64,000 bases of DNA, taken from assembly GCF_022837055.1 (NCBI RefSeq), contig NC_062561.1:552715-616714 (forward strand). The letters are read 5' to 3'. The translations under genes were made by a program, and so were the position numbers. Positions 34,636 through 54,427 of the stretch are shown here, piece after piece. Positions within the stretch are counted from its first letter, which is position 1. Each line of letters starts with the position of its first letter. This DNA comes from Prionailurus viverrinus. Lineage: Eukaryota. The notes below the pieces were generated by a model. The model was not told the origin of the DNA and searched no databases. It saw only the letters and a list, made by a program, of their open reading frames with translations.

Positions 34636-34867
34636 GGGGCGCCTGGGTGGCACAGTCGGTTGAGCGTCCGACTTCAGCCAGGTCACGATCTCGCGGTCCG
34701 TGAGTTCGAGCCCCGCGTCGGGCTCTGGGCTGATGGCTCAGAGCCTGGAGCCTGTTTCCGATTCTGTGTCTCCCTCTCTCTCTGCCCCTCCCCCGTTCAT
34801 GCTCTGTCTCTCTCTGTCCCAAGAATAAATAAACGTTGAAAAAAAAAAAGAAATTAAAAAAAAAAAA
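34636..34867 (+). mobile_element. Young carnivore SINE (CpG-retaining subfamily) with 14-bp TSD
   Basis: TSD AAGAAACTCCTAGA on both sides. Near-identical to the copies at 53455 and 54155. Confidence 0.95.
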
Positions 34868-35089
34868 AGAAACTCCTAGAAATGTCTAGAAGCAATTTGC
34901 AACTGTACAAATAAAAATCAAGACCAATGTCAAAACTAAGGAAAAATTCATCACCTACATGGCTTATGTGGGTGCATGATATGGGGAGTGCCTGAAAGCT
35001 GAGGCAAGGAGCATGAGCAGAAGCAAGATCTCCTTGCCCACCACCTGAGAACTCACCTGAAGGCAGTGAGGAGCCCTAAGGAGCTCATT

Positions 35090-37135
35090 AATACGCATGA
35101 AATAAAAAAGTACATGGCAGCAAATGAAAATGAAAACATGACAGTCCAAAACCTTTGGGATGCAGCAATGGCAGTCCTAAGAGAAAAGTTTATTGCAATC
35201 CAGGCCTACCTCAAGAAGCAAGAAAAGTCTCAAATACATGACTGAACCCTACACCTAAAGGATCTAGAAAAGGAGCAGCAAATAAAGTCTAAAGCCAGCA
35301 GAAGATGGGAAATAATAAAGAATAGAGCAGAAATAAATGATATTAAAACAACAAAACCCAGCAGAACAGATCAATGAAACTAAGAGCTGGTTCTCTGAAA
35401 GAATTAATAAAATTGATAAACCCCTAGGCAGACTTATCAAAAGGAAAAGAGAAAGGACCAAAACAAATAAAATCATGAATGAAACAGATCACAAACAACA
35501 CCACAGAAATACAGACAACTGTAAGAGAATATTATGAAAAATTATATGCCAAAAACTGGGCAATCTAGAAGAAATGGACAAATTCCTAGAAACATACAAA
35601 CTACCAAAACTGAAACAGGAAGAAATAGAAAATGTGAGCAGACCTATAACCAGCAAAGAAATTGAAACACTAATCAAAAATCTCCGAACAAACAAGAGTA
35701 GTCCTGGGCCACATGGCTTCCCAAGGGAATTCTACCAGACATTTAAAGAAAAGTTAATATATATTCTCGTCAAACTGTTCCACAAAACAGAAATGGAAGG
35801 AAAACTTCTAAACTCAATCTATGAGGCCAGCATTACCTGATTCCAAAACCAGACGAAGACCGCACTAAAAAGGAGAATTACAGGCCAACATCCCTGATGA
35901 ATCTGGATGTAAAAATTCTCAACTAGATATTAGCAAATCTAATCCAACAGTACATTAAAAGAATTATTCACCACGATGAAGTGGGATTTATTCCTGGGCT
36001 GTAGGGGTGGTTCAGTATTCACAAATCCATCACCATGATACACCACATTAATAAAAGAAAAGTACAAGAGCCATATGATCCTCTCAATTGATGCACAAAA
36101 AGCATTTGACAGAATAAAGGACCCATTCTTAACAAAAACACTCAACAAAGTAGGAATAGAGGGAACATACCTCAAAATCATAAAGGCCATATACGAAAGA
36201 CCCACAGCTAATATCCTCCTCAATGGGGAAAAACTGAGAGCTTTGCCTGTACAGTCAGGAACAAGACGGGGATGTCCACTCTCACTGTTTCTATTTAAAC
36301 ACAGTACTGGAAGTCTTAGTCTCAGCAATCAAACAATGAAAAGAAACAAAAGGCATCCAAATCAACAAGGAAGAAGTCAAACAATCATTATTCGTAGACA
36401 ACATGTTACTCTATGTAGAAAACCCGAAATACTCCACCAAAAAATTGCCAGAACTAATATATGAATTCTGCAAAGTAACAGGATATAAAAATCAACATAC
36501 AGAAATCTGTTGCCTTTTTATACACCAATAATGAAGGAGAAGAAAAAGAAATCAAGGAAGCGATCCCATTTGCAATAGCACCAAAAACTGTAAGATACCT
36601 AAGAATAAACCTAATCAAAGATTTGAAAACTACAGAACACTTATGAAAGAAGTTAAAGACAACACAAAGAAGTGGAAGAACATTCCATGCTCATGGATTG
36701 GAATAACAAACATTGTTAAAATGTCTATACTACCCAAAGCAACCTACACATTCAATGCAACCCCTATCAAAATACTACCAGAATTTTTCACAGAACTAGA
36801 ACAAATAATCCTAAAATTTGTACGGAGACACAAAAGACCCCAAATAGCCAAAGCAATCCTGAAAAAGAAAAGCAAAGTGGGAGGCATCACAATTCTGGAC
36901 TTCAAGCTGTATTACAAAGCTATAGTCATCAAGACAGTATGGTACTGGCACAAAAACAGACATATAGATCAATGGAACAGAATAGAGAACCCAGAAATGG
37001 ACCCACAAACGTATGGCCAACTAATCTTTGAGAAAGCAGGACAGAATATCCAATGGAAAAAAACAACAGTGCTGGGAAAATTGGACAGTAATATACAGAA
37101 GAAAACTTTTTGGCTTTTCAAAAATAAATAAATAG
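35090..37135 (+). mobile_element. LINE-1 ORF2 5' portion (EN end through RT), antisense to CENPJ
   Basis: + ORFs at 35574-35840, 36075-36464 and 36643-37131 give L1 ORF2 motifs (...FPREFYQTFKEKLIYILVKLF..., ...[53 protein letters not shown]...). Confidence 0.85.
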
Positions 37136-37732
37136 TTAAGAGTTTGCAAGTATTAATAACTGGGGGAAAAGAAGCCCAAAAGCTATGAGAAACATCAAAG
37201 ACAAGCTAACTAAAACAGATTTTTACTACAAGACCAGAAAGTCAAACCAATAAGTGAAAGAGAAAGGTAACTATTAGAGAAAAACATACAAATGTAGTGC
37301 TGGGAAAGATTGGTGAGCAAGTGCTCTACCCAAAGGAAGAGTGCAAGATTTACAGTTAGTACAGAGGGCTTCAATTCACATAAATGAACAGAATTAACAG
37401 CATTTGGTATGTGGGACATTAAACAGGTCAATGCAACATGACACTGGTGAATTTCCAACTCTTGGCTTATTAATTCACCGATGCCGTTATTGTAGTCTTT
37501 TTTTTTTTTTTTTTTGGAAGACTTTGGTAAGAAAACAACTGATATATTTCACTCTAAAAGCCAAAACTACAAAAAATGTTCTTCATGTAGTATCTCAGAT
37601 TATTTGTTGAGTCAATGAATGATTAATAAATTGATACCCAATTTCTCTTTGACACATCATATAACTCTGAGATCCTTACTAGACTGTCATCCTTACTAAC
37701 TCATATAAGTATAACGTAAAGAACTGGCATAC

Positions 37733-37898
37733 CTGTATTTCCTCACGTTCTTTTTTATCTGGAAAAGTTCTTGCAACTGTAGTATACTTCTCAAAAACTT
37801 TCCGTTCCTTTTGTAGCTTCCTCATTTCCTCCTTTTTAAACTCTTCTATCCGAGTCAATTCTTTTGCTTTCTGTTGTTCAAAGTCTGTAATTTCTCTC
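37733..37898 (-). CDS. CENPJ: CENPJ exon ([55 protein letters not shown])
   Basis: Acceptor cattttag|GAGAGAA and donor ATACAG|gtatgcc. 166 nt. Matches the human sequence with only a few substitutions. Confidence 0.9.
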
Positions 37899-53454: not shown

Positions 53455-53668
53455 GGGCGCCTGGGTGGCGCAGTCGGTTAAGCGTCCGACTTCAGCCAGG
53501 TCACGATCTCGTGGTCCGTGAGTTCGAGCCCCGCGTCAGGCTCTGGGCTGATGGCTCGGAGCCTGGAGTCTGTTTCCGATTCTGTGTCTCCCTCTCTCTC
53601 TGCCCCTCCCCCGTTCATGCTCTGTCTCTCTCTGTCCCAAAAATAAATAAACGTTGAAAAAAAAAAAT
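53455..53668 (+). mobile_element. Young carnivore SINE (CpG-retaining) with 16-bp TSD AAAATATACTTTGAGG
   Basis: TSD at 53439-53454 and 53677-53692. Near-identical to the copies at 34636 and 54155. Confidence 0.95.
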
Positions 53669-53692
53669 TTTTTTTTAAAAATATACTTTGAG

Positions 53693-53900
53693 GAGCGCCT
53701 GGGTGGCTCAGTCATTGAGCATCCAACTTCAGTTCAGGTCATGATCCCATGGTTCGTGAGTTTGAGCCCTGCGTCAGGTTCTATGTTGACAGCTCAGAGC
53801 CTGGAGCCTGCTTTGGATTCTGTATCTTTCTCTGCCCTCCCCCACTCACAGTCTGTCTCTCAAAAATGCATTAAAAATTTCATTAAAAAAAATAAATAAC
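53693..53900 (+). mobile_element. Carnivore SINE (older copy; the young SINE was inserted just upstream of it)
   Basis: SINEC consensus with more substitutions and CpG decay. Confidence 0.85.
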
Positions 53901-53963
53901 TAAGAATAAAATATATTTTGAAAATACTTCATCAAATAAGCACTTTAAGAAAGATCCTTGACA

Positions 53964-54427
53964 GGGGCGCCTGGGTGCCTCAGTTGGTTAAGTGCCAACT
54001 TCAGCTCAGGTAATGATCTCACAGCTTGTGAGTTCAAGCCCTGCATCAGGCTCTGTGCTGACAGCTCAGAGCCTGAAGCCTGCTTCGGATTCCGTCTCCC
54101 TCTCTCTGCCCTTCCCCTGTTCACACTCTGTCTCTTAAAAATAAATAAACGTTGGGGCGCCTGGGTGGCGCAGTCGGTTAAGCATCCGACTTCAGCCAGG
54201 TCATGATCTCGCGGTCTGGGAGTTCGAGCCCCGCGTCAGGCTCTGGGCTGATGGCTCAGAGCCTGGAGCCTGTTTCCGATTCTGTGTCTCCCTCTCTCTC
54301 TGCCCCTCCCCCGTCCATGCTCTGTCTCTTTCTGTCCCAAAAATAAATAAACGTTGAAAAAAAAATTTAAAAAAATAAAAATAAAAATAAATAAATAAAT
54401 AAATAAACGTTAAAAAAATTTAAAAAC
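53964..54427 (+). mobile_element. Carnivore SINE whose A-rich tail hosts a second, nested young SINE (54155-54397). Outer TSD AGATCCTTGACA.
   Basis: The outer direct repeat lies at 53952-53963 and 54428-54439. The inner SINE is flanked by AAATAAATAAACGTT(G) at 54138-54153 and 54398-54413. Confidence 0.85.

Follow-up and report, generated by a model that had tools for sequence, protein, structure and literature searches.

In a 64,000-nucleotide stretch of Prionailurus viverrinus DNA (NC_062561.1, positions 552,715 to 616,714; hereafter the window), four copies of CanSINE, a tRNA-derived short interspersed element (SINE) of carnivores, form a young group distinct from all other copies. These copies, named A, B, C and D, are very probably four independent retrotransposition products of one young CanSINE lineage, the Felidae-specific subfamily II subtype IIB. 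Their independence is deduced from the fact that each copy has its own flanking sequence and its own perfect target site duplication (TSD). They are ordinary members of an already known, recently active felid SINE subtype (SINEC_Fc1-like). B, C and D lie in introns of CENPJ, and at one of these introns C and D were inserted into the TSD and the tail, respectively, of two older CanSINEs, H and I.

Copies were located by a blastn search of the window with the body of copy B (34636-34830) as query. The search recovered 36 CanSINE-like copies, about 6.3 kb in all, corresponding to 10% of the window. Over the 195 aligned positions of their bodies, A-D are 94.9-96.9% identical to one another and align without gaps. 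The remaining 32 copies are more distant, the nearest of them being only 86-90% identical to the young group; divergence comparable to that of the older copies was thus not seen among A-D. The diagnostic motif CAGCCAGGTCAYRATCTYRYRGTC, searched for as a degenerate pattern spanning a 1-bp deletion of the young group, occurs exactly four times in the window, once in each of A-D, against a chance expectation of zero. Out of 15 CpG sites, 13 are kept in A, 14 in B, 14 in C and 11 in D, and 3-9 are left in the five older copies that were counted. A preliminary description of this DNA had reported three near-identical SINEs with shared diagnostic variants and most of their CpG sites. All three (B, C and D) are real, they are tRNA-derived carnivore SINEs carrying the common motif, and their CpG retention is borne out. 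A fourth copy (A, on the minus strand) had been overlooked, the 47-nt string quoted as shared is present in its exact form only in B, and the term near-identical overstates a relationship in which the copies differ pairwise by 3-5%.

Table 1. Positions of the young (A-D) and older (H, I) CanSINE copies, their TSDs and the CENPJ coding exons on either side of the intron that holds C, H, I and D. Ages are estimates in million years (My) from all sites at published cat rates.
Feature	Position	Body	Strand	TSD	TSD positions	Age	Remarks
Young copy A	7369-7620	7410-7604	minus	AAAAACTGTGCAAAGG, 16/16	7604-7619 and 7369-7384	2.4-3.5 My	blastn, alignment, motif
Young copy B	34621-34879	34636-34830	plus	AAGAAACTCCTAGA, 14/14	5′ 34621-34634, 3′ 34866-34879	3.0-4.4 My	blastn, alignment, motif
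Young copy C	53439-53692	53454-53648	plus	AAAATATACTTTGAG, 15 bp	5′ 53439-53453, 3′ 53678-53692	1.2-1.8 My	blastn, alignment, motif
Young copy D	54139-54411	54154-54348	plus	AAATAAATAAACGTT, 15/15	5′ 54139-54153, 3′ 54397-54411	4.2-6.2 My	blastn, alignment, motif
Older CanSINE H	53692-53921		plus				78% identical to B, 3 CpGs left
Older CanSINE I	53951-54440		plus	AAGATCCTTGACA	53951-53963 and 54428-54440		81% identical to B, 4 CpGs left, split by D
CENPJ coding exon	53044-53178		minus				downstream side (gene orientation) of the intron
CENPJ coding exon	54949-55062		minus				upstream side (gene orientation) of the same intron

According to Walters-Conte et al. 2014 (PMC4084570), the motif GGCTCGG defines felid CanSINE subfamily II. 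Its subtype IIB, grouping with Repbase SINEC_Fc1, has two further markers, an indel of a single T (1 bp) within the tRNA-related region and, in box A, a T>G change. All three markers were found in the young group and point to Felidae as the source of the DNA. GGCTCGG is present in A, C and a copy from outside the window (L002), and B, D and a second external copy (L001) have GGCTCAG, a CpG transition. The T deletion is common to A-D (CAGC-CAGG), the older copies having CAGCTCAGG at this place. PMC4084570 gives the position of the indel and not the IIB state, and the direction was therefore taken from its co-occurrence with the IIB-specific G of box A. This G is seen in the consensus and in A, C and D (TGGCGCAG) in place of the older copies' TGGCTCAG; B has TGGCACAG, a CpG transition from the G.

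All 49 IIB loci sampled in PMC4084570 were clade- or species-specific and less than 5 My old, with a mean distance of 0.068, and the study describes one of two feliform CanSINE families as still actively inserting. The presence of the IIB markers in A-D, together with this published youth and clade specificity, supports the earlier proposal of a recently active source subfamily. The window copies resemble the published IIB insertions also in their A/T-rich target sites, in a pairwise distance (0.03-0.05) within the published mean, and in insertion beside or into CanSINEs already present, the TSDs overlapping or being identical. At least two independent CanSINE insertions were found in 35% of the felid regions amplified in that study; TSDs were seen to overlap, and insertion at loci that already held a CanSINE gave rise to tandem arrays. 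The one difference is that the window shows re-use within a single lineage, a young copy having entered the TSD at the 5′ side of an old one, whereas the published examples come from different species. Otherwise there is no substantive difference between A-D and published IIB.

The structural features expected of a CanSINE were found in the young copies, namely a tRNA-related head with RNA polymerase III (pol III) boxes, a 3′ part of the T+ type (in A lacking the T run) and L1-type integration. Box A (TGGCGCAGTCGG, consensus positions 13-24) and box B (GAGTTCGAGCC, consensus positions 67-77) are kept in all four. ARAGORN reported seven tRNA-like heads in the window, that of C among them (53459-53543), and three older copies matched the Rfam tRNA family at its gathering score. 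In the 3′ part, a CT-rich segment at consensus positions ~133-182 is followed by AAAAATAAATAAACGTTG, an A run, a T run and a second A run. B, C, D, I and the external copy L002, whose tail is A7 T6 A5, all show this order, with two AATAAA signals at its start. The T run varies in length, from TT in B and TTT in D to T9 in C; A has none, its tail (7385-7409) being an A run only. The tail of B (34831-34865) reads AAACGTTG A11 G AAATT A11 and merges into the two A's that open its TSD; that of D (54349-54396) is A9 TTT A7 followed by TAAAA and TAAA repeats. In C the tail (53649-53677) reads AAACGTTG A11 T9 A, the unusually long T9 standing directly 3′ of A11 and the terminal A tail being nearly gone before the TSD. 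By the scheme of Kosushkin et al. 2022 (PMC9599045), such an end combines a strong, elongated pol III terminator and an A tail that is shortened.

L1-type integration was recognised by a TSD of ~7-20 bp together with a nick site resembling TT/AAAA (the slash marks the nick). The crisp 14-16 bp TSDs noted earlier were confirmed and are perfect in all young copies; a single additional T (34635) stands between the 5′ TSD and the body of B. The nick-site context is TT/AAAA(A) at A, C and D, and a TT/AAAA-like context is found also at H. That of B is the weaker TG/AAGAAA. From what is known of the family, a source copy would have been transcribed by pol III from its internal A and B boxes, its TC-rich motif, AATAAA repeats, T-run terminator and A tail constituting a T+ SINE architecture. 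The endonuclease/reverse transcriptase of L1 ORF2 would then nick a TT/AAAA-like site and copy the RNA in place by target-primed reverse transcription, leaving a TSD of 14-16 bp. In copy C the A and B boxes, the TC-motif, the AATAAA signals and the T9 terminator are intact, and C could be a putative transcription-competent source copy.

A similar organisation is known from the dog Can SINE (SINEC_Cf/Can_b2), a T+ SINE with the same TC-motif, AATAAA repeats, T-run terminator and A tail (PMC9599045). The two share a tRNA-Lys-like head and rudimentary (TT or TTT) or elongated T runs ahead of the A tail. Can_b2 also has TAAA-type tail repeats where the TSD opens with (T)AAA, and D conforms to this pattern, its TSD opening with AAAT and its tail bearing TAAA-type repeats. 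The copies studied here differ in the third position of box B, which is T (GTTCGAGCC), as noted for cats in PMC9599045, and A in Caniformia. Massive breed-level polymorphism of Can SINEs has been documented in dogs. Young human Alu elements (AluY lineages) are likewise non-autonomous and L1-mobilised, with TT/AAAA targets, TSDs of about 15 bp, a CpG decay usable as a clock and clustering in the tails of older elements. They differ in their derivation from 7SL RNA and in a T- route without AATAAA-dependent polyadenylation, and belong to an unrelated sequence family.

The exons of CENPJ, mapped by tblastn with CENPJ homologues, are on the minus strand and span 63693 to 14398. C, H, I and D all lie within the 1770-bp intron 53179-54948, more than half of which is now SINE sequence; the exon map thus places both C and D in one CENPJ intron, as had been proposed. 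The 5′ TSD of C begins ~260 bp from the exon at 53044-53178. B lies within the intron 34121-37729, and A is found ~6.8 kb past the end of the coding exons. B, C and D run antisense to the gene, and nothing points to an effect on CENPJ.

Within this intron the order of insertion can be read directly from the TSDs. The 5′ TSD of I is followed by its body and the first part of its tail (53964-54153), and the remainder of the tail (54412-54427, A7 TTT A5 C) is found only beyond D. D thus splits the A-rich tail of I, with the TSD of I on both sides of the composite, in agreement with the earlier report of one SINE nested in the tail of another. At the second site, the TSD of H is AAAATATA[C/T]TTTGA. 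Its 3′ copy (53908-53921) has one mismatch and its 5′ copy is the sequence that C duplicated. Exact matches to the 14-mer AAAATATACTTTGA stand at 53439 and 53678, and a third match, with one mismatch, at 53908; by chance 0.12 would be expected per window. Presence of the same TSD sequence three times indicates that H was inserted first and C much later at the same L1 endonuclease nick. C therefore lies within the 5′ TSD of H and re-used the target site of H, the two TSDs being the same to within 1 nt; the TSD pair of C is identical, and the outer TSD copy of H has diverged. The C/H target, TT/AAAA-TATAC-TTTGA, matches the two-nick consensus TTAAAA(N)0-8TYTNR quoted in PMC4084570. Origin of the C/H arrangement by segmental duplication or unequal crossing-over was considered and discarded, as identity is only ~78% (H against B, the sister copy of C) and C carries the young markers.

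When the four SINEs are removed, two A/T-rich target sites 43 bp apart remain. H and I were inserted first, one into each of these sites. D followed later at a TT/AAAAA site made by the 3′ end of I itself, and C entered at the former nick site of H, intact in the 5′ TSD of H, its second nick differing from the earlier one by no more than 1 nt. CpG retention (11-14 of 15 in the young copies, 3-4 in H and I) agrees with this relative order. The C locus before insertion (empty allele) is expected to read ...AACTTTAAAATATACTTTGAGGAGCGCCTGGG...

The nesting also bears on whether A-D are merely old copies with a young appearance. Retention of CpG sites by itself does not tell youth from hypomethylation, and old insertions could in principle have been shielded from methylation-driven decay or overwritten by gene conversion from young SINEs. 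Gene conversion between SINEs is known from other families. Such an origin was considered highly improbable. A-D are set apart from the older copies by diagnostic changes outside CpG sites, one of them an indel, and their TSDs are perfect where that of H has diverged. Conversion does not create new TSDs. Moreover, D within I and C within the TSD of H must post-date CpG-decayed neighbours only a few tens of bp away. Hypomethylation and gene conversion were accordingly rejected as the source of CpG retention on the TSD and nesting evidence.

The presence of four SINEs in one short intron had been described as a local insertion hotspot. A true regional hotspot, beyond L1-endonuclease preference, might reflect for instance a chromatin or transcription feature of the CENPJ intron. 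The four SINEs take more than half of the 1.77-kb intron and each of the two ancestral sites was used twice; felid "hotspot" loci with up to six independent insertions are known from the literature (PMC4084570). Against this, randomisation of positions inside the window gave no significant result for four SINE starts in 750 bp (P=0.22), for two young copies out of four in 700 bp (P=0.12) or for two or more of the four young copies abutting (within 60 bp of) an older SINE (P=0.10). Elsewhere in the window, six SINE starts fall in 2.1 kb at 48.6-50.7 kb, likewise not significant (P=0.13), and ~12 copies lie between 57.7 and 62.3 kb by blastn. Both re-hits are accounted for by good TT/AAAA sites that the first insertion kept or made. 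The hotspot is thus not demonstrated, and we consider it unlikely. As none of the P values is significant, the pile-up is compatible with chance and ordinary L1 target preference. The mechanism of clustering is real and already published: A-rich tails offer sites to the L1 endonuclease, and a site once used can be used again.

Ages of the insertions were estimated from a consensus of six copies (A-D, L001 and L002). Per 195 bp, 2 differences from it were counted in C (1.0%), 4 in A (2.1%), 5 in B (2.6%) and 7 in D (3.6%). Rates published for the cat were applied, namely 2.3e-9 per bp per year from a pedigree, 1.54e-9 from phylogeny (the cat-tiger divergence) and, for CpG, 1.76e-7 per CpG site per generation, with a generation of 3.8 years (PMC9290555). 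At these rates the insertions would be roughly 1-6 My old, and CpG sites only give 0.7-4.3 My for the young copies. The Poisson intervals are wide (0.1-6.4 My at 95% for C). Divergence of 2-7 positions in 195 is typical of IIB, and "very young", as the copies had been called, is too strong a term. The rate-based ages are compatible with the IIB pattern of restriction to a single clade or species (<5 My). The host SINEs H and I keep 3-4 of 15 CpGs, for which the same approximate clock would give some 14-26 My.

Some points weigh against reading A-D as IIB insertions of this age. IIB membership was assigned from features given in the text of PMC4084570 and not from alignment to the Repbase or Dfam consensus, and the consensus used for dating was built from only six copies. 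Differences outside CpG sites are in excess (9 of 18, against 18% expected; P=0.002). Heterogeneous source copies therefore probably passed on some of the divergence, the candidates being two ancestral-state bases in B and T66G, common to A and D. All ages are for this reason upper bounds, and the insertions may be younger. Moreover, whether they are fixed and how they are distributed over lineages is deduced only from the rates.

At 1-6 My, the insertions would most likely be fixed in the species and specific to the genus or lineage; that they are fixed across Felidae, or still segregating, appears unlikely. One or more of the young copies, most plausibly C, might be recent enough to segregate as a presence/absence polymorphism. 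C has only 2 differences in 195 positions and a lower 95% age bound of ~0.1-0.2 My, part of the differences was apparently inherited from source copies (the non-CpG excess), and some IIB insertions are unfixed in wild felids (PMC4084570). Point ages of 1-6 My, however, are long relative to the usual persistence of neutral polymorphism, as far as this can be inferred. A, B and D (the last with 7 differences and a degenerate tail) look older than C, and C itself has a long T run and an almost lost terminal A tail, a state that PMC9599045 ties to elapsed time. The main text of the cat genome paper (PMC7581003) holds no usable SINE polymorphism data. Polymorphism in at least one copy is improbable: the age estimates make it unlikely for A, B and D, and for C they leave it conceivable though not probable. 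There is likewise only a slim chance that C, at exactly the target site once used by the far older H, is a very recent and perhaps polymorphic insertion.

Public DNA collections were searched with the IIB-diagnostic pattern. One metagenome contig (L001) and one bacterial-assembly contig (L002) were recovered, both contaminants from other loci, and viral contigs gave no match. L001 (AACY023260721.1, 1515 bp) is a contig of the marine Global Ocean Sampling (GOS) metagenome, carnivore- or felid-like and with several CanSINE-like repeats as judged by eye. L002 (NZ_SDVB01000344.1, 379 bp, coverage 0.54), from the Ciceribacter ferrooxidans F8825 assembly, consists of a felid IIB CanSINE and its flanks. 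With the large CENPJ exon as a protein query no carnivore match was obtained, the best match being 77% identical, and an exact-sequence look-up of the open reading frame (ORF) of this exon gave no match.

The orientation of the CanSINEs inside CENPJ (14398-63693) is 21 antisense to 11 sense (two-sided binomial P=0.11). The direction of this bias fits selection against sense SINEs bearing AATAAA and is not significant here. The plus strand of the window is composed of A 33.0%, T 28.7%, C 20.7% and G 17.6%, with an excess of T+G on the coding (minus) strand of CENPJ; such an excess is expected from transcription-associated mutational asymmetry.

Probable L1 ORF2-derived fragments were seen at 43049-46224 (plus), 36075-37131 (plus) and 3211-6444 (minus). 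A reverse-transcriptase Pfam match at 44626-45111 was borderline (28.9 bits against a gathering cut-off of 29.6, E=1.1e-6), and ORFs 43530-44075, 36643-37131 and 5296-5715 had no Pfam match, the L1 call being made by eye. If they are L1, these fragments are decayed relics of the element type whose machinery mobilises SINEs. A 307-aa open frame (41172-42095, plus), rich in RS/SP repeats and with a KKHKK-type basic run at its end, lies in a CENPJ intron and has no Pfam match. It may resemble the C-terminal part of SRRM1, and in that case would be a processed pseudogene. A low-complexity tract of ~1.8 kb (8900-10780) lies downstream of the CENPJ 3′ end; it is CA-rich and degenerate, with ACACAYA-type units, and almost devoid of G and T on the plus strand, with GC skew to -0.82 and AT skew of ~+0.5. 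A near-perfect tandem duplication is present at 12921-13023 (49-bp unit, 2.1 copies, 98% match), and simple repeats at 32522-32576, (AAACAA)9, and 46651-46708, (AAAAG)11.6.

The insertions have little importance beyond annotation, landing in or beside older CanSINEs being already published. Within the cat family, the loci of A-D might serve as lineage markers. C and H together illustrate cleanly how one L1 endonuclease site was used for two insertions separated by millions of years, which bears on the assumption that SINE markers are free of homoplasy. If exact re-use of TT/AAAA...TYTNR sites kept in 5′ TSDs is common among felid CanSINEs, presence/absence characters could be homoplasious.

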